From: an uncultured bacterium
GTDB taxonomy: Bacteria; Patescibacteriota; Patescibacteriia; Patescibacteriales; UBA12465
Reading direction: 5' to 3'
NCBI GenBank assembly: GCA_942492765.1
Contig: OW818634.1
Span: forward strand, 793,159-857,158
DNA: 64,000 nucleotides
Of this stretch, positions 2,868 to 64,000 are shown in pieces (position 1 is the stretch's first letter; each line of letters begins with the position of its first letter). The notes beneath the pieces were generated by a model, which was given only the letters and a program-made list of their open reading frames with translations, was not told the DNA's origin and made no database searches. Position numbers and translations under genes: made by a program.

Positions 2868-2879
2868 ATTTTTCGCTTA

Positions 2880-4142: not shown

Positions 4143-4152
4143 AGCTTATAGA

Positions 4153-4713
4153 TTAGGCTGATTTTTTGATGGTGTCGATGATCTTATCTATCTGAGCGTA
4201 TAATTCTTCTTTAGTGCCATTATTGTCTATCTGATATTTAGCTGTCGCCATGACCGTCGGAATTTCTTGTTCAGCCTCGCGGCTGTTGTCAGCTATGAAT
4301 TCTTCGAAGGTCTTGGTGGCGTCGTCTTCGTTCTCGCGGCGCTTAGTCAGGCGCTCGTAGCGGGTGGGCAGGTCGACGTTCAGACTGATAAGATAGAATC
4401 CCGGGACATCCTTCAGGGAAGATATGTCTGGCAGGCGGCGGATGCCTTCGACGATTATTATTTCATGATCATCATTCTTGACGTCTTCAGCGATGACGCG
4501 GGCGAGCGTATCGCTGCCGAAGCGGGTTCTCAGGTCTAATGACAGGTTCTGCATGTTCTCTCTGGTGATCGGTAAGTACAGGCGGTTTAAGATATCGCGG
4601 AGCATCGTGGAATAGCGATGGCCGCTAGCGCCATATTTTTCCATGACATAAGTCTTACAGGTATCTTTGCCGCTGACCATGAGGCCGCTGAAACCGAGGA
4701 TGATTTTTGACAT
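4153..4713 (-). CDS. P-loop nucleotide kinase, dNMP-kinase-like
   Basis: N-terminal KIILGFSGLMVSGKDT resembles the phage T4 gp1-type dNMP kinase P-loop (LSGVKRSGKDT); sits inside the dTTP-synthesis operon. Confidence 0.55.
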   Translation of the reverse strand: MSKIILGFSGLMVSGKDTCKTYVMEKYGASGHRYSTMLRDILNRLYLPITRENMQNLSLDLRTRFGSDTLARVIAEDVKNDDHEIIIVEGIRRLPDISSLKDVPGFYLISLNVDLPTRYERLTKRRENEDDATKTFEEFIADNSREAEQEIPTVMATAKYQIDNNGTKEELYAQIDKIIDTIKKSA

Positions 4714-4716
4714 AGT

Positions 4717-5217
4717 TTAGTAGATGACCCGATAATGCAGCATCAGGGTATCGTCGTTTAGGTTTTTAATTTCTAATAATTTTAAATTAGCGTCTAAATC
4801 ACGGTTGAACAAGGAAAGCCCGGAGCCGAATATCTTTGGTTCAACTGTCAGGATAATTTCGGAAATCAGCTTTTTTTCTAAGAAAAGTGAATTAAGGAAT
4901 GAGCCGCCGCCCAGGAGGGCTGATTTATAGCCGAGAGCTTCTAATTCTTCCAGAACTTTTTCTGGCTCCCCTTTGACCCATTTCACCCCCTCAATCGGTT
5001 CATGTTCCATTTCGGAAAAGACGACATTCAGGCGATTTTTCAGGGGGGCGGGGAAGGTCTTGAAGGTGTTTTCGCCCATCATGATTACGCCGTGAGCTTT
5101 AGAAATCTCCACGAAGAGCTTTTTATCTTCGCGGCTGGTCCAATCGGCGAACTGCGTCTTGTCTTTGGCAATCTTGCCGTCAACGGTCATCGCCATCATC
5201 ATGGTGACTGGGATCAT
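4717..5217 (-). CDS. Dihydrofolate reductase-like protein (RibD C-terminal domain family)
   Basis: MAMTVDGKIA...MGENTF...LLGGGSFLN pattern of RibD_C/DHFR-fold reductases; directly downstream of thyA. Confidence 0.6.
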   Translation of the reverse strand: MIPVTMMMAMTVDGKIAKDKTQFADWTSREDKKLFVEISKAHGVIMMGENTFKTFPAPLKNRLNVVFSEMEHEPIEGVKWVKGEPEKVLEELEALGYKSALLGGGSFLNSLFLEKKLISEIILTVEPKIFGSGLSLFNRDLDANLKLLEIKNLNDDTLMLHYRVIY

Positions 5218-5235
5218 GTCTTTGTGAGTTAGTGA

Positions 5236-6051
5236 TTAAATCGCTATCGGCGCTTTTATGCCTGGCTCCGGATCATAGCCTTCCAGGGTAAAATCTTCAT
5301 ACTTGAAGCCGAAGATATCTTTAACTTGCGGGTTGATGATCATTTTCGGCAAAGCTTTTGGAGTACGGGCAAGCTGAGTCTGAACCTGTTCGAAATGGTT
5401 ATTATAGATATGGAGATCGCCGAAGGTATGGACGAATTCCCCGAGCTTGAGGTCGCAGACCTGAGCAATCATCATGGTTAGGAGCGCGTAGGAAGCGATA
5501 TTGAAAGGAACGCCTAGGAATAGGTCGGCGCTACGCTGGTATAATTGGCAGGATAATCTATTATCATGAGAAACATAGAATTGGAACATGGTGTGGCATG
5601 GCGGCGGTGCGGTTTTTTTGCCGCTGATGAGATTGCGCAGGTCGCCGACGTTCCAGCCGCTGATGATAATGCGGCGCGAGGTCGGATTATGCTTCAAAGT
5701 TTCAACTGTTTCAGCGATCTGATTTATTTTAGTGCCGTCTTTTGCTTCCCAGGCAGTCCATTGCTTGCCGTATATCGGTCCGAGGTCGCCGTTCTCGTCG
5801 GCCCATTCATCCCAGATGGTCACGCCGTTGTCATTCAGGTATTTTATATTAGTATCCCCTTTCAAGAACCATAGCAATTCATAGATGATAGATTTCAGAT
5901 GGACCTTCTTGGTCGTGAGTAAAGGGAAGCCTTCGTTCAGGTCATAGTGAACCTGGCGGCCGAAGACGCTTCTTGTCCCGGTTCCGGTTCGGTCGTCTTT
6001 GCTTTTTCCGTTTTCCCAGACATCTTTTAAGAGATCAAGATACTTTTTCAT
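5236..6051 (-). CDS. thyA: Thymidylate synthase (ThyA type)
   Basis: [32 protein letters not shown] motifs. Confidence 0.95.
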
Positions 6052-48972: not shown

Positions 48973-49010
48973 AAAGGGGTGGTATTCGATGAGAATATCA
49001 TCCCTTTTTT
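48973..49010 (+). terminator. Rho-independent terminator
   Basis: 15-bp stem (aaaggggtggtattc / gaatatcatcccttt, two G-U) plus T-run. Confidence 0.7.
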
Positions 49011-49063
49011 ATTTTTTCACGAGATGATATAATACTAACAAGCATAAAATAATTTTTAAGAGT

Positions 49064-49435
49064 ATGAAAAAATTTCTTTTTTCTGGATTATTAATTTTTG
49101 TCTTCGTCTTTAGTTTCAACATCGTTTGGGCTCAGACGGGTACTGGCGGTTCAAACACCGGCGGCTCCGGCATCACCTTATCTAACCCCCTTGGCGACGT
49201 CACCTCCCCGCAAGCCTTTATCGGCAAGATCATCAATTCCATTCTCGGCGTGGTTGGATCCCTGGCTCTCCTCATGTTCGTCTATGGCGGCCTGACTTGG
49301 ATGACCTCTTCGGGCAGTCCGGACAAGGTTAAGAAAGGTCGGGATACCTTGCTTTGGGCAGCTATCGGCCTAGTCGTGATCTTTTCCGCTTACGGCTTGA
49401 CCCGCTTCATTCTCGGTACGGTCGTCACGCAATAG
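49064..49435 (+). CDS. TrbC/VirB2-like pilin-family protein
   Basis: Signal peptide, NPL motif, two hydrophobic helices flanking YGGLTWMTSSGSPDKVKKGRD; pattern of the small T4SS-pilin-like family common in CPR genomes. Confidence 0.6.
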   Translation: MKKFLFSGLLIFVFVFSFNIVWAQTGTGGSNTGGSGITLSNPLGDVTSPQAFIGKIINSILGVVGSLALLMFVYGGLTWMTSSGSPDKVKKGRDTLLWAAIGLVVIFSAYGLTRFILGTVVTQ

Positions 49436-49467
49436 TATTTAAGCTAGCTTCAAGAAAATATCGGACT

Positions 49468-49490
49468 CCGGCCTGTTTTCAGGCCGGTTT
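49468..49490 (+). terminator. Terminator after the pilin gene
   Basis: ccggcct / aggccgg stem followed by TTT. Confidence 0.5.
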
Positions 49491-49517
49491 GACAATTACC
49501 GATATTTTTTTTAATAT
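49489..49517 (+). promoter_or_regulatory. Sigma70-type promoter for tRNA-Tyr (and probably RNA copy A)
   Basis: TTGACA - 17 nt - TAATAT, 18 nt upstream of the tRNA 5' end. Confidence 0.65.
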
Positions 49518-49534
49518 AGAAGAGCAATCATCAA

Positions 49535-49618
49535 GGGTCGATACCAAAGCGGTCAACTGGGGCAGACTGTAAATCTGCTGGCCTTGCGCCTTCGTTGGTT
49601 CGAATCCAACTCGGCCCA
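49535..49618 (+). tRNA. tRNA-Tyr (anticodon GUA), long variable arm
   Basis: Acceptor gggtcga/tcggccc, anticodon stem gcaga/tctgc with loop cuGUAaa, variable arm tggccttgcgccttc, T-loop ttcgaat; no encoded CCA. Confidence 0.9.
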
Positions 49619-49636
49619 CTCTTTGAGATTTCAGTC

Positions 49637-49837
49637 ATTTTAAAAATCACCTCCGAAACCCGATCATTCGGGATATTAGCAATTATTTTTTGGACATGGC
49701 GTTGCTTCGTTAATATCGAAGCCATATCCGAGAGATAGTTATGTCACCTTTTTACGGCTTCGCTAGATTTAACTCGTATTCGGCCATAGTCGACCGGATA
49801 TCTTGGGGGTGATTTTTAAAATATGTTTCGCTAGTAA
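49637..49837 (+). ncRNA. RT-associated structured RNA, copy A (stand-alone, terminator-ended)
   Basis: 18-bp terminal stem: 49637-49654 pairs with 49805-49822. Internal hairpins cccga-tcat-tcggg and cttcg-ttaata-cgaag. Homologous to copy B; carries ATGTTT followed by an early stop. Confidence 0.6.
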
Positions 49838-49859
49838 GAGCCTGTTCAGGCTCTTTTTT
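49836..49859 (+). terminator. Rho-independent terminator ending RNA copy A
   Basis: aagagcc-tgttca-ggctctt followed by a T-run. Confidence 0.7.
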
Positions 49860-49895
49860 GTTGGGCGGTTTCCTCGGGTTTTTGCGCTGGTGAAG

Positions 49896-49924
49896 TTGAT
49901 AAAAAAGACGGATTAGGCTAAAAT
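49896..49924 (+). promoter_or_regulatory. Sigma70-type promoter for RNA copy B / RT operon
   Basis: TTGATA - 17 nt - TAAAAT, ending ~15 nt before the copy B 5' stem arm. Confidence 0.6.
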
Positions 49925-49939
49925 ATTAATGTGCTAGTT

Positions 49940-50129
49940 ATTTTAAAAATCATCCTCAAAACCCGATCATTCGGGATATTAGCAATTATTTTTCGGACAT
50001 GGCGCTAGCTTCGTTAATATCGAAGTCGTATCCGAGAAATAGTCAGAAGGGGTATCTGTTAAATTTAATTCATATCCGGCCGCAGCCGACCGGTTATCTT
50101 GGGGATGATCTTTAAAATATGTTTAGTAA
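49940..50129 (+). ncRNA. RT-associated structured RNA, copy B (5' leader of the RT gene)
   Basis: Terminal stem: 49940-49957 pairs with 50101-50118 (one mismatch, one G-U). Same internal hairpins as copy A. 3' arm ends 1 nt before the RT ATG. Confidence 0.6.
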
Positions 50130-51324
50130 AATTTTGTGTTACTCTAATTTCGAAGCCGCTTATCTGGAGATAATTGAACAGTTTTCTAATGATCGCCGCA
50201 ACTTCAAGTATCATGGCCTGGATAATATCTTTCTGCGCGATCTTGATCTCAAATCTCGGAAGATAATCAAGTCGGCTCTAGCCGATCTCTCGCAGAAGAA
50301 GGAGATTGAGCCGGCTCTCTGCGTTTCCATCCCTAAGCCTAATAAGCCGGGCGAGCATCGGGAAATCTTTATCTACAACCTGAAAGAAAGGATCAAAGCT
50401 CAGGCTATCTACCGCATCGTCCTGCCGGAGTTCGAGAAGATCTTTTCCGACAGGCTTTTTTCATATCGGCCAGGCAAGCCGCCTTATCTCGCCGCGCGGA
50501 TATTCTGCCGCCGCTATCGCCGCTCTTTTAAGAGCGACCAAGCGCTGGTGATAGACTTGAAGAATTATTCCGACAGAATAGATCGAGAGAAGATGTTTGC
50601 GCAGCTGCAGGCGATATTTCCCGATAAGAAAGTCTTGGAGCTCTTGCGCCTCTTCATTTTCAACAAGGTCTATCGCGATGGCGTCTGTCTAACGCCTGAT
50701 AAAGGCTTGGTGCAGGGCGTGCCGCTTATCGCTTTGTTCGCTAATCTTTATCTGACCGACTTGGACTTTAAATATCAGGCTGAAGCCGATTTCTATATCC
50801 GCGTCGGCGACGATATTGCCTTATTGGATCCGGATTTAGAAAAGCTCCGGAATATATTGGCGGAGATTTCTGAAGATATTGCCGCGCGCGGACTGGAGAT
50901 CAACCAGAAGAAATTATTCATCGGTCCGGCTAAGGAGAGGTTCTCCTTCCTCGGCTACGCCTTTAATTCCGGCCTGATCGGCTTGGAACCGGGCTTCATC
51001 AGGCGTATCGAGATGGAATGGAAGAGGCTCTTGATCTACCAGCACTCGGCAGAATGGGCTAAGCGGCGGATAATCATGAAGATGATGAGCCGGCCGGAGA
51101 AAAGCATCAACGATCAGTTTCAGAAGATCGTTAGGGATAAATGCCAGATCAATGACTCGGATCAGATCAAGAAGGTGTCGGAGAAATTCTTTTCGATCCT
51201 GACCAAGTTCTTCTATGAGCATTATTCGCCGCGTAATCGCCGCCGCTTAGAAGGCGACTTGAAAGAGTTCGGCATAGTCTCCCTTTATAATACCTATAAG
51301 AATTTTCATTATGATAGACGATAA
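50119..51324 (+). CDS. Reverse transcriptase (stand-alone, unclassified prokaryotic RT)
   Basis: RT motifs: IPKPNKPGEHREI (1/2), SYRPGKPP (3), LVIDLKNYSDRID (A), GLVQGVPLIALFANLYL (B'), YIRVGDDIALL (C), FSFLGYAF (E); 401 aa. Confidence 0.85.
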   Translation: MFSKILCYSNFEAAYLEIIEQFSNDRRNFKYHGLDNIFLRDLDLKSRKIIKSALADLSQKKEIEPALCVSIPKPNKPGEHREIFIYNLKERIKAQAIYRIVLPEFEKIFSDRLFSYRPGKPPYLAARIFCRRYRRSFKSDQALVIDLKNYSDRIDREKMFAQLQAIFPDKKVLELLRLFIFNKVYRDGVCLTPDKGLVQGVPLIALFANLYLTDLDFKYQAEADFYIRVGDDIALLDPDLEKLRNILAEISEDIAARGLEINQKKLFIGPAKERFSFLGYAFNSGLIGLEPGFIRRIEMEWKRLLIYQHSAEWAKRRIIMKMMSRPEKSINDQFQKIVRDKCQINDSDQIKKVSEKFFSILTKFFYEHYSPRNRRRLEGDLKEFGIVSLYNTYKNFHYDRR

Positions 51325-53023
51325 GAATCAGATAAGCTTATTGAGGAAGGTCCGGATGCGGCGCGTCAAACATCAGACGCAGGAATCCGAGGACCTCAAT
51401 AAGGATTATATCCGCGCTTTTTTCAATAAGCATAAGCTCCTTATCTTGGGGACTCTCGCTTTATTCCTGACCCAAGGAATCATCGAAACCTTTCTCGTCA
51501 TCGTCGGCCGAAGCCGGCTGGCTTATGACGGCGGCCGGACGGCGGGAACGCTCTTCTGGCAGCTCTTGATTATTCTGCTCACGTTATTCGTCGTCAATTC
51601 CTTTTTCTCTATCAAACAGGAGAAGACGATCGTCGTTATTTTTGTTAACAATCTCCGCCGCCGCATCTTTAGGAATTATCTGGGTAAGGCGCCGGAGAAG
51701 ATGAGAGCGGAGGGGCAAGCCGATCTCGTCGCTAAGATCTCTTATCATCTGCCGCTCGTCTCGATGGGCGTCTCTAATTCTTTTTTCGGTCTGGCGAGAT
51801 GGGTTATCTACTTGGCTTCAGCCTCGGTCGTCGCGCTTTTAGCCGGCCTTAACGTATCTCTCATCGCTGCCTTCTTCATTGTATTATCAGTCATCATCGC
51901 CTTAGCTTCATATTTCACAGTTAAGCGCTATGTTTCGCAGGAAGTCACCTTCTTCTCGCAGATTATTAAGCACATCAATCTCAGCTTGTCGGAAAAATAT
52001 TTTTCCAAAGGCTTTAATCTGGAGCCCGTGGTCATGAAGAAGTTCGACCGCCTGGTCGATTTCGATTCTATTTTCAGGATACGCCGCGACCTCTGGATGA
52101 AGATGGGCTTCAAGATAGTCTTCGCTATCGTTCTGGTCGTTTCTGTATTGAGTAACGCTTTTTACGGCGGGCTGGCTGAGAAGATAAATCTGATTCGGCC
52201 GGAGCTGAAGTTTTTGTATGTCTTCCTTCTGATTTATCTGTCGCGCATCATTACTGAATCCCTGCGTATCGGTCTTTATTTCTTCCCGGCCAAGCTGGGC
52301 TTGTCGCTCACTAATGTGCCGCTCGAAAAATACTTGCATCGCAGCAATATCAAGAATATCAAGAGCGAGATTGCTTTCTCTAGCCAGAAGACGAAACTGT
52401 TCAGGCAGGGCAGGTATTATCGAAACCTTGAGCTCCGTTTCTTAAGAGGCGGACGTTATCTGTTCTTCGGACCCAATCTCTCGGGTAAGACTGTTTTAGC
52501 CAAGTTATTTTTCGGCGGCGAGACTTATAACTCTAAGGCGCTGAAAGTAAAGATAGACGGGCAGAGGTTGGATTTCTATGAGTACCAGAGGAAATTCAAT
52601 CAGGCTTATTATTTCGATCCTAATTTTAATTCCCAAAAGAGCCTGATTGAGATAATTACCGGCTCAGACAGGGAAGAGACCGCTTTCCCGGAAATCGAAG
52701 AAGCCTTGCGGATAATGGCTGCTCAGCCCGCGATCTCCAACTTAGTTTCTCCGAAGAAGAATTTTAATCTGTCGGCTGGCGATATCTGGGATAATCACTT
52801 GACCGCCTTTGCCCTGCATGCGGCGCATTGCTTGGTCGTAAAACCCGCGCTTATCATCATCGATAATCTCTGGCTTGATCTGGATTACCCGGGTATCAAG
52901 GAGATGTTGAGCACTATCAGTCGGGAATTGCCAGAGTCCATCATCATCGTTTTTGCCCATAAGGATATTGATAATTTAAATTATGATAAACGTTATGACC
53001 TGGAAAAAAATCTTAAATTTTAG
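51311..53023 (+). CDS. ABC exporter-like TMD-NBD protein with degenerate ATPase motifs
   Basis: ~6 TM helices of the type I exporter pattern. NBD has Walker A GPNLSGKT, signature LSAGD (vs LSGGQ), Walker B LIIIDN (no catalytic Glu), H-loop FAHK. Start overlaps the RT stop by 14 nt. Confidence 0.7.
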   Translation: MIDDKNQISLLRKVRMRRVKHQTQESEDLNKDYIRAFFNKHKLLILGTLALFLTQGIIETFLVIVGRSRLAYDGGRTAGTLFWQLLIILLTLFVVNSFFSIKQEKTIVVIFVNNLRRRIFRNYLGKAPEKMRAEGQADLVAKISYHLPLVSMGVSNSFFGLARWVIYLASASVVALLAGLNVSLIAAFFIVLSVIIALASYFTVKRYVSQEVTFFSQIIKHINLSLSEKYFSKGFNLEPVVMKKFDRLVDFDSIFRIRRDLWMKMGFKIVFAIVLVVSVLSNAFYGGLAEKINLIRPELKFLYVFLLIYLSRIITESLRIGLYFFPAKLGLSLTNVPLEKYLHRSNIKNIKSEIAFSSQKTKLFRQGRYYRNLELRFLRGGRYLFFGPNLSGKTVLAKLFFGGETYNSKALKVKIDGQRLDFYEYQRKFNQAYYFDPNFNSQKSLIEIITGSDREETAFPEIEEALRIMAAQPAISNLVSPKKNFNLSAGDIWDNHLTAFALHAAHCLVVKPALIIIDNLWLDLDYPGIKEMLSTISRELPESIIIVFAHKDIDNLNYDKRYDLEKNLKF

Positions 53024-54197
53024 TGATAGGAATAATCGCGGGCGGAAAGCCCGGTTAATTATTCTGCCGCTCGTGATTTTGGGACTGGTAGCATACGCGG
53101 GCATGATGATATTCCGCTTGTATCAGGAGTCAGTCGGCCGCCAGATCGCGCCAGCAGAGATGATCAAGATCAACGAGCCGTTCTCAGGCAGTGCGCATTT
53201 TAACGACAAACTCGGCCAGGATGATTTTTCTCAGCTGATCGTTAGCAGCATTGATCAGGCCGAGAAGACCGTTGATATCGCCGTCTATTCCATGGATAGC
53301 CAGGACATCCGGGACGCTCTCTATCGCGCGGCCAAGAGAGGCGTCACGGTTAGCGCCATCTTCAGCGATAAGCGCCAAGAGATAATCGTGGCGCTTTTCA
53401 AGGATAAGCCGGATAACGTTAAGATCGGCTTCATTCCTTCGGATATTTCCAGCTACATGCATCATAAGTTCATGTTGGTCGACCGCGGTTTGAGCCGCCA
53501 GAAATTATTTTTCTCTTCTTATAATTTTACTTATTTCCAAGGCAAATATGACCCGAGCTTCATCCTCGAGACCGGCCGTCCGGAATTAGTAGCCGTCTTT
53601 GGCAAAGAATTCGACCGCCTAGTCATCGAGCTCAATGATAAGGTGAAGCAGCCGCCCGTCAATCCTTTTGCCGCCCGGATAGAATATACCGACGGCTTCT
53701 TGGAAGTTTGGTTCGCGCCGGGAACGCCTAAACATAATATCAAGAGCCGGATGATCGGCTTGATTCAGAGCTCCACGAACAATATCAAGGTTTTGATCTG
53801 GTATCTGACCGATAAAGAGATTGCCGCTGAATTAGCGGAAGCGTCTCGGACCAAGCCGGTCTGTCTAGTGACTGACGATTTTAATTGGCTCGCTCCAGGC
53901 TCGGCTTTCCCGATCCTAGAAGCTCAGAGGGCCAGGCAGAAATTAGATAAGCTTGAGCTTATCCAAGACAGCCAGCGGAACGCGGAAGTAGGCCGGCTCA
54001 TGAACGATACTGGCTTCAATTCTTTCTTGCACCAGCATCTTTTGATAATCGATGATAAAATTGCTTTGTTTGGAACTAATAATTGGAGTTTCGGCGGCTT
54101 CTTTACTAACAGCGAATCAATCATGATTACTGACATTAAGAGCCTAGTCGACGCCTTTAGAGGCTCATACCAGGCTAACTATGACGCTAATAAATAA
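52983..54197 (+). CDS. Membrane-anchored PLD/HKD-superfamily protein (nuclease- or phospholipase-like)
   Basis: N-terminal basic stretch plus single TM. HKD-1 HHKFMLVD..SSYNFT. HKD-2 HQHLLIIDDKIALFGTNNWS (Lys replaced by His). Overlaps the previous gene by 41 nt. Confidence 0.75.
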   Translation: MINVMTWKKILNFSDRNNRGRKARLIILPLVILGLVAYAGMMIFRLYQESVGRQIAPAEMIKINEPFSGSAHFNDKLGQDDFSQLIVSSIDQAEKTVDIAVYSMDSQDIRDALYRAAKRGVTVSAIFSDKRQEIIVALFKDKPDNVKIGFIPSDISSYMHHKFMLVDRGLSRQKLFFSSYNFTYFQGKYDPSFILETGRPELVAVFGKEFDRLVIELNDKVKQPPVNPFAARIEYTDGFLEVWFAPGTPKHNIKSRMIGLIQSSTNNIKVLIWYLTDKEIAAELAEASRTKPVCLVTDDFNWLAPGSAFPILEAQRARQKLDKLELIQDSQRNAEVGRLMNDTGFNSFLHQHLLIIDDKIALFGTNNWSFGGFFTNSESIMITDIKSLVDAFRGSYQANYDANK

Positions 54198-54322
54198 TCC
54201 TGTATAATATTGCTATATGCCTATAATCAACCCTGACAAGATCGGTGTCGGTATGGTGAAAATTTTCGCCATTGAGTTCGTCGTGCTAGCGATCGTCACC
54301 CTTGTCTTGCTCGCCCTATAAT

Positions 54323-55204
54323 ATGCCTGAGCTTCCCGAGGTAGAAACTATCCGCCGCGATCTGGCGGCTATCATGCTGGGCTCTAAAATTATTTCCGTG
54401 GACATCATGTCTCCGGGGAGCGCTTCGCATTCCGCGGCTTTTTTCAGGAAGGAACTCATCGGCCGGAAGATAATCGAAGTCGGTCGCCGCGGCAAGCTCC
54501 TGATGTTCCGCCTTTCGCCGAGCGCCGGCAAGAAGATGGATTATATCATCGTGCACCTGAAGATGACGGGTCAGTTGATATTTTCTGGAAATAAAGAGGA
54601 GGTCGCCGGTGGGCATAGCCATAATGCTAAAGCAGAATTGAAGAATTTGCCGAACAAGCACACGCGCGCAGTCTTGAAACTCGCGGACGGCGGAAAATTA
54701 TTCTTCAACGACATGCGCCGCTTCGGCTATATCAAGTTAGTTTCTAAAAAAGAGCTGGAAGATGTCTTGGCGAGAAGCTATGGCCCAGAACCGCTAACTC
54801 CAACCTTTACTTTTCCGGCTTTCTTGTACGCTCTCAGCCGCACGAACGTGAAGATCAAAGCCGCGCTTCTGAATCAGAAGCTGATTGCGGGGCTCGGCAA
54901 TATTTATGCCGATGAAGTCCTCTGGGAAGCGCGCCTGCGGCCGGACCGCCCGACTCAGAGCCTGAAACCGGCGGAACTGAAGAAGCTCTATAATGCTATC
55001 AATCGGATAATAAAGCTAGCTATCAAGAAGCGGGGCACGACTTTCAGCGATTATGTCGACTCCCGCGGCCGCAGCGGCAATTTTTCCAAGTTCTTAAAAG
55101 TCTATGGCCGGGGCGGGGAAAAATGCCCGAATTGCCGTAATCCTCTCCAAAAAGCCAAAATCGCCGGACGCGGCACGCATTATTGCGCTATTTGCCAAAA
55201 ATAA
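54323..55204 (+). CDS. mutM: Formamidopyrimidine-DNA glycosylase
   Basis: Start set at MPELPEVE (catalytic N-terminal Pro); H2TH region; C-terminal zinc finger CPNC..CAIC. Confidence 0.9.
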   Translation: MPELPEVETIRRDLAAIMLGSKIISVDIMSPGSASHSAAFFRKELIGRKIIEVGRRGKLLMFRLSPSAGKKMDYIIVHLKMTGQLIFSGNKEEVAGGHSHNAKAELKNLPNKHTRAVLKLADGGKLFFNDMRRFGYIKLVSKKELEDVLARSYGPEPLTPTFTFPAFLYALSRTNVKIKAALLNQKLIAGLGNIYADEVLWEARLRPDRPTQSLKPAELKKLYNAINRIIKLAIKKRGTTFSDYVDSRGRSGNFSKFLKVYGRGGEKCPNCRNPLQKAKIAGRGTHYCAICQK

Positions 55205-57440: not shown

Positions 57441-58103
57441 ATGGAAAATATCCTTAAGCAAAAAGCGTTGGATTTGAGAAAACAGGGCTATTCTTTTAAT
57501 GAAATGAGCCGGCTGCTTAATGTTGCTAAAAGTACGGTTTCTCTATGGACTAGATCAGTACCACTGAGCGAGAATGCTAAGCTGAGGATAAGAGATTTAG
57601 GCGATAAAGGCAGGTGGAAAGCTAGAGAGACTATCAGGCGCAAACAAGCCTTGATTCTCGATGGCATTAAAAATGATTGCGGCGCGTTGGTTAATAAAAA
57701 ATACGGGTTAGATGATTATAAGTTATTCTTGGCGCTTTTATATTGGGGAGAAGGGGCTAAGACTGAGCATAGACTTAATTTTATCAATTCTGATCCAGAC
57801 ATGATCAGGATATACCTATGGCTATTAAGAAAGTCTTTTATTATTAAGGAAGAGCACTTGAAAGGCCTGCTTCATCTTCACGAATATCATAATCGGGAGG
57901 AAATGGTTGATTTTTGGTCTAAAATAACGGGTATTCCCAAAAATAATTTTTCCATATATAATAAGCCCCATACTGGAATCAATAAGAAGCCCGGTTATAA
58001 GGGCTGCTTGTCAATTCGGTATGGAGATAGTAGAATAATAAAAGAGATTTTTATTATCATTGAGAGGTTTAAAAATCTAGCTAATATTGCGGGATTGGTG
58101 TAG
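57441..58103 (+). CDS. HTH-domain protein with possible single LAGLIDADG-like motif
   Basis: N-terminal HTH (YSFNEMSRLLNVAKSTVSLW); LALLYWGEGAK resembles a LAGLIDADG/GEG motif; stop codon lies 15 nt inside tRNA-Trp; visibly more AT-rich than its neighbours. Confidence 0.45.
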   Translation: MENILKQKALDLRKQGYSFNEMSRLLNVAKSTVSLWTRSVPLSENAKLRIRDLGDKGRWKARETIRRKQALILDGIKNDCGALVNKKYGLDDYKLFLALLYWGEGAKTEHRLNFINSDPDMIRIYLWLLRKSFIIKEEHLKGLLHLHEYHNREEMVDFWSKITGIPKNNFSIYNKPHTGINKKPGYKGCLSIRYGDSRIIKEIFIIIERFKNLANIAGLV

Positions 58104-58159
58104 TGGTAACATATCTCTCTCCAAAAGAGCAGACGGGGGTTCGATTCCCTCATCCCGTG
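58089..58159 (+). tRNA. tRNA-Trp (anticodon CCA)
   Basis: Acceptor gcgggat/atcccgt (G1-U72), anticodon loop cuCCAaa, T-arm ggggg-ttcgatt-ccctc. Confidence 0.8.
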
Positions 58160-58170
58160 CGGAAAAGCAT

Positions 58171-58962: not shown

Positions 58963-59045
58963 GAATATTATTTAAGCTAATTCTTTAATTTTTGCTAAAT
59001 ATGTATATTTGTATTAGAATATAGTTATAGCATATTCTAAATATA

Positions 59046-59936
59046 ATGAATAAAATTCAACTTGATAAAATAATTAATATTTTGCCAAAATCAAAAGTAA
59101 AGCTCTTGAAAAAAGGGAAAAATTTTCATATTTTATTAACAGGCGACTCTGCGAAAATATTAGAATCATTTCCAGATGGTTCGGTTGATGTTATCTTTAC
59201 CGACCCCCCATACAATGCCAGATTAAATTATGGTGATACATATAATGATAATTTACCTCGAGCCGAGTATTTTGAACAAACTCTTCTATGGTTCAAGGAT
59301 TATGCAAGGATACTAAGCGATAAGGGGTGTCTGTATTTGATGAATTATCCAGAAATTAATGCAAGAATTTTGCCTTATTTAGAAGATAAGCTGGGGTTAA
59401 TTTTTAAAAGATGGATTACGTGGCACTACCCGACAAATATTGGCCACTCTAGGAACAATTTTACTAGAAGTCAGAGATCAATTCTATTTTTATCAAAAAC
59501 AGATAATCATACATTTAATAGAGATAGAATATTGCAACCATACAAGAACCCTGGGGTTGGAAAAATAAAGAAACTTTTACAAGAGGGAAGTAAGGGTCGT
59601 GCAGCATATGATTTTTTGGATTTTATTGATTTGTTAGAAATGAGGACTGTCGAAAATGATTTTAGCCCCCTGGATGTGCATGACGTTGATTTATTGAAAA
59701 ATGTAAGTAAGGATAGATTAAATGAAAAACATCCATGTCAGCTCCCATTTGAATTGATAAAAAGATTATTATTAGTTAGTAGCAAAGCAGGAGATGTGGT
59801 GTTGGACCCATTCGCCGGGACATTTAGCACATCTTCCGTGGCAACAAATTTAGGGCTTAGTTCTGTCGGCATTGAAATAAATCCAGAATACGTTAATTTA
59901 GGATTGGAGAGGTTGAAACGACATGTAACACAATAG
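59046..59936 (+). CDS. DNA methyltransferase, beta-class N4-cytosine/N6-adenine type
   Basis: Motif IV FTDPPYN precedes motif I VLDPFAGTFST (order IV then I = beta class). Confidence 0.85.
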   Translation: MNKIQLDKIINILPKSKVKLLKKGKNFHILLTGDSAKILESFPDGSVDVIFTDPPYNARLNYGDTYNDNLPRAEYFEQTLLWFKDYARILSDKGCLYLMNYPEINARILPYLEDKLGLIFKRWITWHYPTNIGHSRNNFTRSQRSILFLSKTDNHTFNRDRILQPYKNPGVGKIKKLLQEGSKGRAAYDFLDFIDLLEMRTVENDFSPLDVHDVDLLKNVSKDRLNEKHPCQLPFELIKRLLLVSSKAGDVVLDPFAGTFSTSSVATNLGLSSVGIEINPEYVNLGLERLKRHVTQ

Positions 59937-59963
59937 GTTGGTAGAAACATAAGGTGTTTAAAT

Positions 59964-61670
59964 ATGGATAAAAATAAAAAAAAACCTACAACAGATAAAG
60001 AACGTCTTCGTCTCCAGAAAAAAATACGACAAGATATTCGATCTATTTTTAACAATGCAGGTTTTACTTTGATTCCTCAGCATGATATCGATATAGAAAT
60101 ACAAGGTAGTAAAAGTGATTTAGATAACATATTTATTTTTGAAAACGTTATAGTCATCGCAGAGGACACAATTACCTCGGCTGATAAGAATGCCCATTTA
60201 AGAAAAAAAGCGGAGTTTTTTAAACTTTGTTTAGATAACAAATCTGAATTTATTCAATTTTTAAAAACAATTCCAGCATATAAAACTTGCAAAGCGATGA
60301 CATGCAGCGATAGTGATATTAAACTATCGTTTTTGTATGTATCATTATTTGAAGTAGACACTCAACATAAAAAAATTTACTCATCTCTTAGTTTTATTGA
60401 TTCGAAGGCATTAAATTATTTTTTTAGTATTTCGAAAACAATTAAAAAATCTGTTAAATTCGAAATATTTAAATTTCTAGGAATTAATAATGATGAAATT
60501 GGAATCCAGGGGAGCAGCACTACTAACAAGCAATATCCCGGTTTAATTTTGCCGCAAACACTGAGTGGTTTTCCGGCTGGGTATCAATTAGTTTCTTTTC
60601 TAATTGATCCAGAAACTTTACTTGAGCAAGCCTATGTTTTAAGAAAAGATGGTTGGATGGATAACGATTGTGTTTATCAGAGAATACTCGTTGGCAGCAA
60701 AATACTTAATATGAGAAAGTACCTCACAACAGAGGGGCGAGTTTTTGTAAATAATGTAATTATTACACTACCAGACGATGTAAAAGTGACAGATGCAAGC
60801 CATAATTCTTTAAATACACCTTTGACCACTAGAATCGTAAAACATCCGGTTTTAATCGAAATTCCACAGAAATCTGGAAATATAGGAATTATTGATGGAC
60901 AGCACAGAGTTTTTTCTTATCATGAAGGAGGAAGCGATGACCAATATGAAAAAATTATTAGCAAGATGAGGGGTGAACAGCACTTGTTAGTTACAGGAAT
61001 TATATTTCCTAAAGATATGTTAGAAAATGAACGTATAAGATTTGAGGCAAAATTATTTTTAGAAATTAATGATAAACAAACAAGGACAAATACTGCGCTC
61101 CGACAAGTGCTGGGCATGATCATTAATCCATTTGAAGAACTGTCTATCGCAAAGATGGTCGTTAATAGACTGGCCGAACGTGCACCAATGGATGATGTGT
61201 TAGAGCAACATTTTTTTGATAAGAGAAAATTAAAAACATCTTCTATCGTTTCCTATGGCATGAAACACTTAATTAAGCTTTCCGGCGACGACTCTTTTTT
61301 TTCTGTTTGGAGTAATAAAAAAAAGAATTCTTTGCGGAAAGGTAAAGATAAAGTATTGTTAAAGCAATATATAGATTTTTGTACCAACGAGACTAATGGA
61401 TTTTTGCAAGCTTTTAAAAAAAATACTCCGTCAGACATGTGGACTACTAATCAAAAGATAAGTAGAGTTTTAACGGCGACTACTATTATAGGTTTAATTT
61501 ATTGTTTGAGACTCTTAATTAAAAATAAAAAACAGCTTGATTTTAATTATTATGATAAATGTTTTAAAAAATTAAATAAAAAAATTGATTTTACTCCTAA
61601 AAAATTTAAATTTAAATCTAGTCACTGGAAGGATCTCGGAGACGAAATATATAATATTTGTTTTATCTGA
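59964..61670 (+). CDS. DGQHR-domain (DndB/ParB-Srx-like) protein
   Basis: IGIIDGQHRVFSY and FLEINDKQTRTN motifs; 568 aa; 27 nt downstream of the methyltransferase. Confidence 0.75.
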   Translation: MDKNKKKPTTDKERLRLQKKIRQDIRSIFNNAGFTLIPQHDIDIEIQGSKSDLDNIFIFENVIVIAEDTITSADKNAHLRKKAEFFKLCLDNKSEFIQFLKTIPAYKTCKAMTCSDSDIKLSFLYVSLFEVDTQHKKIYSSLSFIDSKALNYFFSISKTIKKSVKFEIFKFLGINNDEIGIQGSSTTNKQYPGLILPQTLSGFPAGYQLVSFLIDPETLLEQAYVLRKDGWMDNDCVYQRILVGSKILNMRKYLTTEGRVFVNNVIITLPDDVKVTDASHNSLNTPLTTRIVKHPVLIEIPQKSGNIGIIDGQHRVFSYHEGGSDDQYEKIISKMRGEQHLLVTGIIFPKDMLENERIRFEAKLFLEINDKQTRTNTALRQVLGMIINPFEELSIAKMVVNRLAERAPMDDVLEQHFFDKRKLKTSSIVSYGMKHLIKLSGDDSFFSVWSNKKKNSLRKGKDKVLLKQYIDFCTNETNGFLQAFKKNTPSDMWTTNQKISRVLTATTIIGLIYCLRLLIKNKKQLDFNYYDKCFKKLNKKIDFTPKKFKFKSSHWKDLGDEIYNICFI

Positions 61671-61734
61671 GAAGATTTTTTTTGGTTACCGTAAAGATAT
61701 CTTCTGTAAATTATAATTTACACCTAATATGGAC

Positions 61735-61757
61735 AACTCAGCGCGGGCTGGGTTTTT
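61735..61757 (+). terminator. Terminator after the DGQHR gene
   Basis: ctcagc-gcgg-gctggg stem followed by TTTTT. Confidence 0.55.
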
Positions 61758-61784
61758 ATTTTTGACTTTTTTGTAATATTATGA

Positions 61785-61826
61785 GATTATGAAGAAAAGA
61801 TAAAAAGATTATGAAGAAAAGATAAA
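61785..61826 (+). repeat. Tandem direct repeat, 2 x 20 nt at 22-nt period
   Basis: gattatgaagaaaagataaa at 61785-61804 and 61807-61826, each containing the mini-ORF ATG AAG AAA AGA TAA; ends 9 nt before the endonuclease ATG. Confidence 0.9.
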
Positions 61827-61835
61827 TTTAATATT

Positions 61836-62513
61836 ATGTTAAAAACAGCGCAAGAAGTCTTTAACCTGCTCAAGAAGCAACATATTGAGAAGTACAATGG
61901 GAATATATCTCTAAATTTAATGAATATTTCTGTCGCGCTTACCGATAAAAGTGCCGTGGGTTATATTTTTCAGGAGTGGCTCGCCTCTTGGTTATCTAAA
62001 AATAAAATTAATTTTGAAGTAAATTTAAATACTCAAGAATTTCCCGATTTTTATCTTAACCCCGGTCGTCATAATCGGAATTTGTTAGAAGTAAAGACAT
62101 TCGATATTGAGGCGAGCGCTAATTTTGATATAGCTAATTTTGATGCTTATTGTAGATCTTTAGAAACAAAAGCTTATAGACTTGACGCTGATTATTTAAT
62201 TTTCGGGTATTCTTTTGTCGATGGGCTTTTAACAATTAAAGAGGTTTGGTTGAAAAAAATTTGGGAAATTACAAGCCCAAGTGCTCGTTTTTCTGTAAAG
62301 ACACAAGTGAAGCAGGATATTATATATAATATAAGACCGTGCACTTGGTGGTCTGATAAAGCCGAATATAAGGCCTTCGAGACAAAAGGAGATTTTGTAA
62401 AAGCATTGTATAAAACTTTAATAGAATATAGAGGCAACAAAAAAATAGCTGATCATTGGATCAAAAGTGTAGAGGCTGGTTATATTAGAGGTGGCGGAAG
62501 AAAATTTTTATAG
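61836..62513 (+). CDS. Putative type II restriction endonuclease (PD-(D/E)xK)
   Basis: EFPDF...(14 aa)...LLEVKTFD matches PD...ExK; convergent with and overlapping the C5-MTase gene by 6 nt. Confidence 0.6.
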   Translation: MLKTAQEVFNLLKKQHIEKYNGNISLNLMNISVALTDKSAVGYIFQEWLASWLSKNKINFEVNLNTQEFPDFYLNPGRHNRNLLEVKTFDIEASANFDIANFDAYCRSLETKAYRLDADYLIFGYSFVDGLLTIKEVWLKKIWEITSPSARFSVKTQVKQDIIYNIRPCTWWSDKAEYKAFETKGDFVKALYKTLIEYRGNKKIADHWIKSVEAGYIRGGGRKFL

Positions 62514-63830
62514 TAAGCTCTGTATTATTTTCTCTGAAACTGCTTGGACTACGGGGACAACTATTGAATTACCTAATAAATCATACGCCTTGCTGTCTTG
62601 GAGTGTAATGTTATAATTTTCTGGAAATCCAAATAGTCTTAAACCCTCTCTTATGGTTAATTTTCTGAGCCCCCCATTATCAATCACCGCAATCTTATTC
62701 ATGTCGGTTGCAACGAGAGTCGGGCTATATTTATTTGAATCCAGAATTTTGCTAATTTCAAAACTTAATTTTCCCGTTATTATATTGTAACCTTTCTCGT
62801 TAGAATTGTCATGTTGTCGAACATGTTTTAGGTTTCCTCTGTTATCTTTTATTTCAAACAAATCTTTAGGATATTCTAATTTTAGATATCCTTTTTTTAT
62901 TAAATCATCTAGTATCTTTTTTAGTTCCTTCTTTGAATTTATTTTGTTATGGTAGAAAGAATAGATATCATCTAGAGTGAGAGGCATTCCATCCATCCAT
63001 TTTATATTTTTTTCTTCAGCCCATTTTTTTTTCCTGCGTTCTTTAAATATTGTATTTAGTAAATCACGTTGCACGAAACTTACTTTTCCTTTTAGATTAA
63101 AGTCCCAACTGTGTATATTATTTGTGCCGCCACGCTTATCTTTGATAGCCTTTCCTTCTAATTCGTCTGTATTGAAATGAGAAAATAATTTCTTTGTAAA
63201 GTCGTTAATTAAGTGGGGTTTATTTATTTCTAATATGTCAGATAATTTTTTATTTATTTTTTTAAAATTATTAATTTCTATTTTTTTCTTTAACGAACCT
63301 GCAATGTAAATTCTTTTTCTTTCTTGCGGCACTCCAAAGTCAACTGCATTTAAAACTTGCCAGCTTACTTTGTATCCCAAACTTTCTAATGTGTTTACGA
63401 TTACTTTAAAAGTTCTTCCCGTCTTGTCGTTGTAATTTTCTTTGTCATGATTAACAAGTCCCTCCACGTTTTCTAATAGAAAAATGGAAGGTTTCTTTTC
63501 TTTTAAAATTCTCTCTATTTCAAAAAATAAAGTACCTCTTGTATCCATAAAACCCTCTCTTTTTCCGGAATAACTAAATGGTTGGCACGGAAAACCGGCT
63601 AGTAGGCAGTCAAAATTTGGTATCTCACTAGTTTTTATTTGGGTGATATCTCCTTTTATGTTATGATCTTTGAAGTATTTTGAATAAACTTCCGTCGCAT
63701 AGTTTTTTATTTCTGAAGTAAAAACACACTCAGACGTAAAGCCCATCGCGTGGGCCGCTTTTTCAAAACCTATTCTTGTTCCTCCTAATCCAGCAAATAA
63801 ATCGATGAATTTTAGGTGTTTTTTTCTCAT
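62508..63830 (-). CDS. DNA (cytosine-5)-methyltransferase
   Basis: Motif I DLFAGLGG, IV GFPCQPFS, VI ENVEGL, VIII QERKR, X GNSIVVPV; long variable TRD. Confidence 0.93.
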   Translation of the reverse strand: MRKKHLKFIDLFAGLGGTRIGFEKAAHAMGFTSECVFTSEIKNYATEVYSKYFKDHNIKGDITQIKTSEIPNFDCLLAGFPCQPFSYSGKREGFMDTRGTLFFEIERILKEKKPSIFLLENVEGLVNHDKENYNDKTGRTFKVIVNTLESLGYKVSWQVLNAVDFGVPQERKRIYIAGSLKKKIEINNFKKINKKLSDILEINKPHLINDFTKKLFSHFNTDELEGKAIKDKRGGTNNIHSWDFNLKGKVSFVQRDLLNTIFKERRKKKWAEEKNIKWMDGMPLTLDDIYSFYHNKINSKKELKKILDDLIKKGYLKLEYPKDLFEIKDNRGNLKHVRQHDNSNEKGYNIITGKLSFEISKILDSNKYSPTLVATDMNKIAVIDNGGLRKLTIREGLRLFGFPENYNITLQDSKAYDLLGNSIVVPVVQAVSEKIIQSLL

Positions 63831-64000
63831 ATTATCATTTTATCTTCTTATTTTTATATAACACTTTACACTACTATACAGTATTATTAGTAAAAATGAA
63901 ATAAGTAAATTTAATTAAAATAATTTATTCCCCCTCATTGTTCAACTCCAACCACAACTCCTCCTTATCCTTTATTCGCCTTTTCAGATCCTCTAATTCT

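Follow-up and report, generated by a model that had tools for sequence, protein, structure and literature searches.

The closest described counterparts of the locus analysed here are the G2L reverse transcriptases (RTs), the class 2 UG or defence-associated RTs (DRTs) and the retrons. G2L RTs are nearest to those of group II introns and lack intron RNA; G2L4 is a stand-alone repair enzyme, another G2L cluster lies in a queuosine-like gene set, and the described groups have neither a dedicated non-coding RNA (ncRNA) nor partners of the kinds reported below (PMC8632793). In the class 2 systems, namely DRT2 (UG2), DRT9 (UG28) and DRT10 (UG17 with SLATT), a compact RT has a pseudoknotted ncRNA directly upstream, and RTs of this class with an adjacent ncRNA template and a membrane effector are on record, as in DRT10 with SLATT (PMC12632851). 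UG26 has been reported with a Vsr-like endonuclease and not with the partners found here (PMC9226505). Retrons follow a tripartite logic, and retron types often have membrane, nuclease or ATPase effectors. Here we describe a cassette in a 64,000-nucleotide stretch (the window) of contig OW818634.1, from an uncultured bacterium of the Patescibacteriota (assembly GCA_942492765.1, positions 793,159 to 857,158, forward strand). The cassette consists of two copies of an RNA element, an RT gene, a gene for an ATP-binding cassette (ABC)-like membrane protein and a gene for a membrane-anchored protein of the phospholipase D (PLD) family (Table 1). The original prediction, made from the letters of the window, had read this locus as an RT–ncRNA system with the ABC-like and PLD proteins as its membrane partner module; that reading survived profile, synteny and RNA-conservation checks, and every feature described was located at or near its predicted position. 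The locus is best explained as a vertically inherited, Patescibacteria-specific four-part module in which a domesticated G2L-type RT stands beside its own RNA.

The logic of an RT, an ncRNA and accessory genes is known. What appears to be undescribed, judged against PADLOC 2023, Rfam 15 and the literature that we searched, is the association of this RT lineage, the RNA family, both partner proteins and the phylum. The combination had been put forward as unrecognised, and it was matched in none of the three; most subscription journals lie outside the literature searched, so this is no proof of absence.

A four-part module inherited together in Patescibacteria

A protein search with the window RT returned 158 clusters of homologues of about 400 amino acids. 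All informative source names were those of Patescibacteria (Falkowbacteria, Magasanikbacteria, Parcubacteria), and the two names from other phyla belonged to metagenome bins. We collected 5 loci from species-representative genomes, which were scanned with narrow peptide patterns, 54 from metagenomes and 4 by later look-ups. The RT gene was followed by the ABC-like gene and then the PLD gene, all on one strand, in 49 of the 49 loci whose downstream sequence was long enough, with RT identities as low as 32%; the 14 loci without a partner are all contig ends within 1.8 kb of the RT. The synteny proposed for the three genes is therefore kept wherever there is room for it. Identities to the window RT, ABC-like and PLD proteins fall jointly, from 93/94/98% to 32/22/33%, and identities across loci are correlated among the three proteins (r = 0.96, 0.91 and 0.95). 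One 568-kb Falkowbacteria contig carries two divergent cassettes. The RNA lies upstream of the RT gene in almost every locus, where it is sometimes duplicated and sometimes forms a terminated unit of its own. Together, these data are solid evidence that the RT, the ABC-like protein, the PLD protein and the RNA form one module inherited together across a broad range of Patescibacteria.

The genes of the module overlap in the window. The ORF list bore out both predicted overlaps, of 14 nt between the RT and ABC-like genes and of 41 nt between the ABC-like gene and a 404-amino-acid PLD open reading frame. Because PLD homologues begin at Met5 of the window protein (MTW or MIW and so on), the true PLD start is probably the ATG at 52995. 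The longer reading frame and its overlap exist as described, and the likelier start shortens the protein to 400 amino acids and the overlap to 29 nt.

The reverse transcriptase resembles those of group II introns

Pfam RVT_1 matched the RT at 59 bits, and the NCBIfam group II RT/maturase model TIGR04416 at 119.5 bits, against an equivalog cut-off of 300. PADLOC models, used without score cut-offs, gave 129 bits for a generic RT, 118 for UG26, 103 for the RT-Cas1 model, 83 for UG17 and 63 for Drt9. The UG26, UG17, UG4, UG27 and Drt9 models match the RT domain at 63–118 bits; the RT_UG26 match covers positions 44–294 of a 398-position model, and group II models score as high or higher. The lone retron model among the 25 of 41 PADLOC matches listed was RT_II-A, at 23.4 bits. 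When a profile of the RT family was compared with the PDB, group II intron RTs ranked first (111–115 bits; GsI-IIC, 114.7), followed by Cas6-RT-Cas1 (102), DRT9 (54), DRT2 (50), bRT (48.5) and the retron RT Ec86 (28.8). The AlphaFold model of the RT (pLDDT 90) superposed over its whole length on the GsI-IIC RT with TM-scores of 0.83/0.80 and a root-mean-square deviation of 3.4 Å. TM-scores were lower for G2L4 (0.72), DRT9 (0.68, the second-best distinct fold match), bRT (0.63), DRT2 (0.52) and a retron RT (0.51). The model contains full fingers, palm, thumb and D-like regions, including the RNA-binding parts of the thumb and D regions, and it stops at the D-like region, without an endonuclease domain. 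The catalytic aspartates, predicted to be intact, are D146 and the D231 and D232 of an R-V/I-G-D-D motif, and all three are invariant in 22 RT homologues.

These results show that the RT is group-II-intron-like in sequence and fold, that it is neither a retron RT nor the RT of a diversity-generating retroelement (DGR), and that it is no clear member of the UG/DRT groups. Classification by profile, which had been left open, placed it outside any characterised clade with ABC and PLD partners, with group II intron RTs as its nearest relatives. An Rfam 15 scan of positions 49000–54500 at E ≤ 1 found no intron RNA around the RT, and the next gene overlaps the RT stop, which leaves no space for intron domains V and VI. 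On profile scores and fold comparison, the RT is G2L-type by the published definition (PMC8632793), because it is nearest to group II RTs and has no intron RNA. It shares these properties with G2L RTs such as G2L4, and differs from the described groups in its dedicated ncRNA and its ABC and PLD partners. From the class 2 UG/DRT systems, which it resembles in its compact RT, its upstream pseudoknotted RNA and, for DRT10, the presence of membrane protein partners, it differs in that the UG models match only part of a domain and not above group II models; the effectors, RNA family, host phylum and non-island context are also different. Retron membership was ruled out by the RT clade scores (retron models, 23–29 bits).

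When 1.84 billion representative proteins were searched exhaustively with the RT profile, they yielded a discrete RT family of about 45–50 clusters at 50% identity, matched over their full length at 225–560 bits. Below about 160 bits the matches were longer RT-containing proteins of about 600–980 amino acids, which by their length would be of the group II and RT-Cas1 types. Three further proteins (P0288, P0290 and P0299; 834–858 amino acids) match the RT profile in two stretches, at 162–225 bits, and could be relatives of this family with two RTs in tandem or fused.

A new structured RNA family precedes the RT gene

Two copies of an RNA element in the window, each closed by an 18–21-nt terminal inverted repeat, are delimited by direct-repeat blocks of 69, 36 and 65 nt that are 85–92% identical and about 300 nt apart. 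The predicted folding energies were −65.6 kcal/mol for copy 1 (z = −6.5) and −60.2 kcal/mol for copy 2 (z = −5.3, both relative to shuffled sequence), and a common multi-helix shape was predicted for both. A covariance model built from 18 sequences of relatives scored the window copies at 172–178 bits. The two-copy RNA-like element of about 190 nt in the original prediction is thus supported by direct repeats, folding and covariance alike. The same model found the RNA 5′ of the RT, on the plus strand, at 126–185 bits in the main clade and at 24–90 bits (E from 1e-17 to 0.02) in distant clades; reverse-strand scores were 36 bits or less. In the DNA of the fetched loci and the window, it gave no significant match away from an RT gene. 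Across the family the RNA is about 190–290 nt long.

Sequences 5′ of the RT could be aligned between loci. RNAalifold returned 39 pairs, of which 27 show compensatory changes. A 32-sequence alignment gave 50 pairs that were 91.6% paired, 44 of them covarying by double changes, compared with 37–46% pairing in slid controls; none of 500 shuffles attained the observed values. From the 5′ end, the RNA comprises a closing stem (P1), P2, a pseudoknot strand, a long three-part P3, a variable region of 12–106 nt with 0–3 hairpins, CUCnUUGGAUUUAAUU, which is a conserved A/U-rich single strand between the variable region and P5, then P5 itself and the 3′ arm of P1. P1 contains ten conserved covarying pairs (98.7% paired) and extends to 18–21 bp in the window, where its 3′ arm in copy 2 reaches the RT start codon; a C–G to U–A compensatory change in this stem distinguishes the two window copies. 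The strand after P2 (GAUAUUA) complements the apical loop of P3 (UAAUAUC), and both change together, as GAUAUCA/UGAUAUC, GGUAUUA/UAAUACC and GGCAUUA/UAAUGCC, each in one clade. This 6-bp pseudoknot was 96.7% paired, with four of its six pairs covarying, in an alignment guided by a model of which the pseudoknot helix was not part. The predicted conservation of the upstream element thus holds across loci, with strong covariation. The Rfam 15 scan matched only the tRNA, and a known RNA family was rejected on that ground. These results establish the upstream RNA as a real, new structured family.

Separately terminated copies suggest that the RNA is a discrete molecule in its own right. In the window, copy 1 is followed by a three-codon remnant (ATG-TTT-CGC-TAG) and a terminator. 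At L003 the sole RNA copy (3798–3987) is followed by a 14-bp terminator hairpin, and two pilin genes lie between the RNA and the RT, which is 2 kb away. A terminator between RNA and RT was also seen by eye in the L028/L030/L047 clade, where the scanner made no call, and we did not use it as evidence. The closest relative of the window locus (L001, 93% RT identity) has the tRNA and a single RNA copy. Tandem second copies were seen in L023 (5598–5778 and 5797–5992), L029 (1643–1920 and 1949–2239) and L031 (5386–5660 and about 5700–5990), and a partial extra copy in L002 (5641–5706). This distribution indicates that the duplication arose independently several times. Tandem copies diverge chiefly in the variable hairpin region, and their helices are kept through compensatory change.

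The RNA resembles that of retrons in that an a1/a2-like P1 of 10–21 bp closes it directly 5′ of the RT and in its internal variable hairpin region. It differs in having no conserved G after the 5′ arm of P1, where the junction is AAAAC, and in its pseudoknot and helix order. A conserved single-stranded segment, GAUUUAAUU, is no more than a candidate for a template or priming site.

An ABC-exporter fold without its catalytic motifs

The ABC-like protein is poorly recognised by sequence. Pfam ABC_tran scored 23 bits, under its 25-bit cut-off, matches to MsbA and TM288 were weak, and PADLOC has no model for it; several homologues carry recorded Pfam ABC_membrane or ABC_tran matches. Its AlphaFold model (AF2; pLDDT 84, pTM 0.73) shows every part of a type IV exporter half-transporter, with six long transmembrane helices and a nucleotide-binding domain (NBD). 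The top solved Foldseek matches were TAP, MsbA, HlyB, McjD and TM287/288, aligned over 545–576 columns with a probability of 1.00, TM-scores of 0.5–0.6 and 13–17% identity. The protein thus shares the full-length fold of type IV exporters. This sets it apart from the soluble SMC/OLD-type ATPases of retrons.

Unlike these exporters, the protein lacks most of the motifs of a working ATPase. Among 27 homologues, K393 of Walker A and D518 of Walker B are invariant, and Asn519 takes the place of the catalytic Glu after D518, the D518-N519 pair being wholly or almost invariant. Neither the LSGGQ signature nor the Q-loop Gln or the H-loop His is conserved in the same set. Because Asn replaces Glu and the Q-loop, signature and H-loop are lost, a homodimer would carry two dead sites. 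We infer from these residues that the protein is a nucleotide-binding, non-hydrolysing gate, sensor or scaffold and not a pump. Its long helices contain invariant charged residues (E59, R116, R163, E211, R256, R259, D260 and R312), which suggests a specific ligand or partner.

A PLD-family protein predicted to face outward

PLDc_2 matched the PLD protein at 100.9 bits, over its cut-off. The best named relatives were nucleases, with NucT models at 45–61 bits and DrmC of DISARM at 61 bits, and the top PDB sequence matches were NucT, Zucchini/mitoPLD and Nuc; cardiolipin synthase models scored 24–26 bits. By these scores the protein is closest to Nuc/NucT-type nucleases. In Helicobacter pylori, NucT is a membrane-associated nuclease with links to the uptake of DNA and the salvage of purines. 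The cassette protein contains two PLD domains in a single chain, with an N-terminal membrane anchor ahead of them. Its first motif, H160-x-K162-x4-D167, is canonical and invariant, and this motif and the PLDc_2 domain are shared with Nuc, NucT, Zucchini and DrmC. It differs from the Nuc/NucT proteins in the fusion of two domains behind an anchor, in its predicted location outside the cell and in its second motif, H350-x-H352-x4-D357, which is invariably HxH with His in place of Lys. Both Asn-containing GSxN-like motifs are invariant among the homologues. Every homologue has one N-terminal hydrophobic segment, and the short tail that precedes it holds 2–8 Lys or Arg residues in 20 of 21. Because this N-terminal side of the anchor is Lys/Arg-rich, the positive-inside rule predicts that the catalytic domain faces outward. 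A second two-domain PLD protein, of 344 amino acids and without an RT or ABC-like gene, is encoded about 6 kb past the second Falkowbacteria cassette (L062, 19813–20847), beside a UvrA-like gene.

Organization and genomic neighbourhood of the cassette

The coordinates of the cassette and of the signals around it are given in Table 1. ARAGORN and Rfam found the tRNA-Tyr that had been predicted just upstream. The original prediction assigned a promoter to each RNA copy: copy 2 has a promoter-like site, and sites similar to it occupy the equivalent position in relatives, whereas the first site precedes the tRNA and not copy 1. Copy 1 begins 14 nt past the end of tRNA-Tyr and is probably co-transcribed with it from that first site. 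Because of where the promoter-like sites and the terminator lie, copy 1 is most simply read as a tRNA-co-transcribed, separately terminated RNA, and copy 2 as the 5′ end of the operon transcript. Among the loci compared, adjacency to tRNA-Tyr is restricted to the window lineage. This adjacency and the RNA duplication are lineage-specific, and the tRNA lies outside the conserved module. We rejected tRNA-Tyr as an integration site, since the adjacency is found only in the window lineage and the GC content of the cassette is typical of the genome (0.47, equal to flanks of 0.46–0.49).

Table 1 Features of the cassette in the window
Feature	Position	Strand	Evidence or remark
Promoter-like site TTGACA-17-TAATAT, 5′ of tRNA-Tyr	49489–49517	+	10/12 consensus matches; consensus match only
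tRNA-Tyr (GTA)	49535–49619	+	ARAGORN; Rfam tRNA, 53.5 bits
ncRNA copy 1	49633–49825 (to 49828 by direct repeats)	+	Direct repeats, fold, covariance model (178.5 bits)
Copy 1 P1	49646–49655/49804–49813; extended 49637–49654/49805–49822	+	Structure model
Copy 1 P2; P3; P5	49659–49672; 49682–49739; 49776–49801	+	Structure model
Copy 1 pseudoknot	49673–49678 with 49711–49716	+	Structure model
Terminator-like hairpin (49836–49855) and T-run, after copy 1	49836–49862	+	Terminator scan
Promoter-like site TTGATA-17-TAAAAT, directly 5′ of ncRNA copy 2	49896–49924	+	Consensus match
ncRNA copy 2	49936–50121 (to 50124 by direct repeats)	+	Direct repeats, fold, covariance model (172.2 bits)
Copy 2 P1	49949–49958/50100–50109; extended 49939–49959/50099–50119	+	Structure model
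Copy 2 P2; P3; P5	49962–49975; 49985–50043; 50072–50097	+	Structure model
Copy 2 pseudoknot	49976–49981 with 50015–50020	+	Structure model
Copy 2 short variable region	50045–50056	+	Structure model
RT, 401 aa	50119–51324	+	ORF, profiles, fold model
ABC-exporter-like half-transporter, 570 aa	51311–53023	+	ORF, profiles, fold model
Membrane-anchored two-domain PLD-family protein	52995–54197 (400 aa) or 52983–54197 (404 aa)	+	ORF, profiles

Four relatives (L001, L007, L008 and L015) have the same flanking genes as the window, in which the flank proteins are 80–97% identical and the cassette proteins 56–98% identical; in L008 the RT, ABC-like and PLD proteins are 72/69/56% identical, compared with 80–89% for the flanks. 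Because the flanks are shared and more identical than the cassette proteins, we conclude that the cassette is chromosomally stable and evolves somewhat faster than its neighbours. The predicted absence of an integrase or transposase was confirmed within 5 kb of the cassette, and neither an integrase nor a recognised defence gene was seen adjoining it.

Several kinds of surface-related genes recur near the cassette. A 123-amino-acid type IV secretion system (T4SS)-type pilin (49064–49435; PF18895, 53.8 bits; TrbC/VirB2-like) lies just 5′ of tRNA-Tyr in the window and keeps this position in L001, L008 and L015. Type IV pilin-like genes, recognised by an AFTLIEL or GFTLIEL N-terminal motif, lie 6 kb or less from the cassette in 14 of 61 loci. 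In several lineages such genes stand directly 5′ on the same strand (L003, 2794–5992; L004, L013, L027, L049, L054 and L060); at L060 the RT comes 350 nt after the end of a PilM-PilB-PilC operon, and pilin-like genes follow the cassette. Giant repeat-rich, tail-fibre-like surface proteins of up to about 1400 amino acids are encoded immediately 5′ of the RNA in 13 loci, among them L026 and L063 (both 1502–5719), with tail-fibre matches to phrog_9942 and phrog_18345. L063 is an IMG/VR contig, and a phage origin was considered on its account. It is laid out like the bacterial L026, and the tail-fibre-like giant proteins, from which the viral signal comes, probably explain its filing as viral; we set it aside as uninformative.

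A protein family of about 200 amino acids, whose members have a membrane segment at the N terminus and the repeat NNDYQ.W...F..F...Y.LL.QG internally, was seen in 15 distant-clade loci (L026, 10218–10832; L029, L031, L036, L037, L039, L040, L042, L043, L045, L048, L053, L058, L060 and L061). It lies 3′ of the PLD gene in 13 of these and 5′ of the RT in L043 and L058. It had no significant Pfam match, and it may be a fifth component in the distant clades.

Beyond the cassette, the window contains a 220-amino-acid ORF (57441–58103) with a weak N-terminal helix-turn-helix match that overlaps the start of tRNA-Trp (58089–58160) by 15 nt. About 0.9 kb after this tRNA begins a low-GC island (59000–64000; GC 0.31 compared with about 0.47). 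Its genes, named from reading the protein sequences and not from an HMM search, encode a DNA methyltransferase-like protein (59046–59936), a 568-amino-acid DGQHR (DndB-like) protein (59964–61670), a 225-amino-acid ORF product (61836–62513) and, on the minus strand, a C5-cytosine-methyltransferase-like protein (62508–63830). The stretch resembles an acquired island for restriction-modification or defence; it begins about 5 kb past the 3′ end of the cassette and is compositionally separate from it.

Discussion

The explanation that we favour, though at somewhat less than an even chance, is that the cassette encodes a retron- or DRT-like RT–ncRNA particle coupled to a membrane module, with a role in anti-phage or abortive-infection defence. 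In the scheme that we infer, the RT would bind the adjacent ncRNA to form a ribonucleoprotein; such a particle is expected because the RT keeps all RNA-binding regions of group II RTs and is always encoded with the RNA. By analogy with retrons, DRT2, DRT9 and DRT10, the ncRNA would be a scaffold and probably also a template for complementary DNA (cDNA) synthesis, and the membrane pair would be the reader and executor. The state of the particle would be sensed by a complex of a homodimeric ABC-exporter-derived protein, which probably binds nucleotide without canonical ATP hydrolysis, and the anchored PLD enzyme, whose substrate and topology are likewise predicted. This pair would be the defence effector. 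A defence role is favoured because the characterised modules of this kind are antiviral, and because typical effectors include PLD nucleases, membrane proteins and ABC-type ATPases. We also count in its favour that the best family matches of the PLD protein include a defence PLD, DrmC, and that the cassette evolves faster than its housekeeping flanks.

Several observations weigh against a defence role. The context of the cassette is housekeeping and not a defence island: its window neighbours are the T4SS-type pilin, tRNA-Tyr, MutM, an AI-2E transporter and rubrerythrin, those in L062 are L32, NusB, RNase III and a PilT-like ATPase, and those in L060 are ThrRS and the type IV pilus operon. A fixed position across relatives with flanks at 80–89% identity, together with genome-like GC, is unusual for defence genes. 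PADLOC recognised no system at the cassette, and the sequence revealed no template, no priming site and no product. An outward-facing PLD domain, as predicted here, would also be an odd abortive-infection effector.

Much of this would suit a lineage-specific envelope function serving an episymbiotic, scavenging lifestyle, which we consider unlikely but the strongest of the alternatives. In one version, the outward PLD protein and an ABC-derived conduit or flippase would act in DNA or RNA uptake, salvage or lipid acquisition; in another, they would export and trim nucleic acid made by the RT. In both, the RT–ncRNA would be a cytoplasmic partner or regulator. The stable position, genome-like composition and housekeeping neighbours fit such a function, as do the co-divergence of three proteins over RT identities from 93% down to 32% and the retention of the cassette, sometimes twice, in genomes of about 1 Mb. 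The Lys/Arg-rich tails of PLD homologues predict an extracytoplasmic catalytic domain, the closest characterised PLD relative is NucT, with its link to uptake and salvage, and the ABC-like fold resembles the lipid and peptide exporters MsbA, TAP and HlyB. Pilin-like genes near 14 of 61 loci, the pilus operon abutting the L060 cassette, the pilins inside that of L003 and the giant surface proteins preceding the RNA in 13 loci point the same way. However, we know of no uptake, salvage or lipid pathway that needs an RT and a dedicated RNA, the NBD lacks the motifs for powering transport, and the PLD topology is a prediction only. The pilin association is not universal and comes from phylogenetically non-independent loci, in genomes where pilin genes are abundant. 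A bolder form of the idea seems to us quite unlikely: the cassette would be a surface pathway at the core of these ultra-small episymbionts, and an RT–ncRNA docked on a non-hydrolysing ABC-derived channel would exchange nucleic acid with an outward PLD nuclease, possibly with type IV pili.

The other alternatives concern the RNA and the RT more than the membrane pair. It is improbable that the element acts solely in cis, as a 5′ leader (for example a riboswitch or a DIVa-like device for RT autoregulation) that controls translation of the operon. In favour of this, the 3′ arm of P1 in the main clade includes a purine-rich GGGG(A/G)UGA and stops 0–3 nt short of the RT start, the multi-helix junction and pseudoknot have riboswitch-like complexity, tandem arrangements are known for riboswitches, and group II intron RTs bind a hairpin containing their own start codon. 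However, window copy 1 precedes a three-codon remnant and a terminator instead of a gene, and the sole L003 copy has a terminator of its own and is separated from the RT by 2 kb and two genes; these stand-alone copies make a pure leader unlikely. In the DNA examined the RNA was found only with this RT family, and autoregulation and a template or scaffold role are mutually compatible. More improbable still is the reading as a mobile retroelement, unusual or decayed, in which a remnant of a group II intron would have the ABC-like and PLD genes as mere neighbours. The sequence and fold of the RT, the start of its ORF within a structured RNA and the variation of the tRNA-adjacent region between close relatives would agree with it. 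It was rejected since the Rfam scan returned no intron model, the RT stop lies inside the ABC-like gene with no room for domains V and VI, the RT has no endonuclease domain, the neighbours are fixed in 49 of 49 loci and co-evolve, and the RNA in the window occurs only 5′ of the RT, with no copies elsewhere and no sign of spread. Least probable of all is a DGR with the RNA as its template repeat and, as the target of mutagenesis, a pilin or tail-fibre-like gene lying upstream. A review puts the share of DGRs among the RTs of these bacteria at about 80% (PMC8632793), surface-protein genes are often 5′ of the RNA, and the element is duplicated in some loci. Yet no variable-repeat-like match to the RNA was found in flanking genes of 30 loci and the 64-kb window, so that no template/variable repeat pair was seen, and the window copies differ by helix-preserving transitions and not only at adenines; we rejected a DGR on these grounds. 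In addition, the RNA is conserved as structure and not as coding sequence, bRT scores 48 bits compared with 115 for group II RTs, and no Avd-like gene is present.

Domesticated bacterial RTs with RNAs of their own, such as those of retrons, DRT2, DRT9 and DRT10, have each brought a new mode of DNA making and have become genome-engineering tools. The present family adds a compact 401-amino-acid group-II-type RT with a full thumb and a D-like fold, a pseudoknotted RNA partner that is well defined by covariation, and partners that are new beside an RT, namely a predicted ecto-PLD and an ABC exporter fold predicted to be dead as an ATPase. With the RNA model, alignments of all three proteins and about 60 loci, the cassette can be tested directly in a heterologous host. 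It is restricted to Patescibacteria, a group of which hardly any cell biology is known and in which tiny genomes retain few accessory genes. If the cassette is a defence system, it would extend RT-based immunity to this radiation with a new type of effector. If it is not, it would place a reverse-transcription step in envelope or host-interaction biology, and an envelope function, if true, would be categorically new; in the bolder form given above, this would be the first RT dedicated to nucleic-acid traffic across a bacterial envelope.

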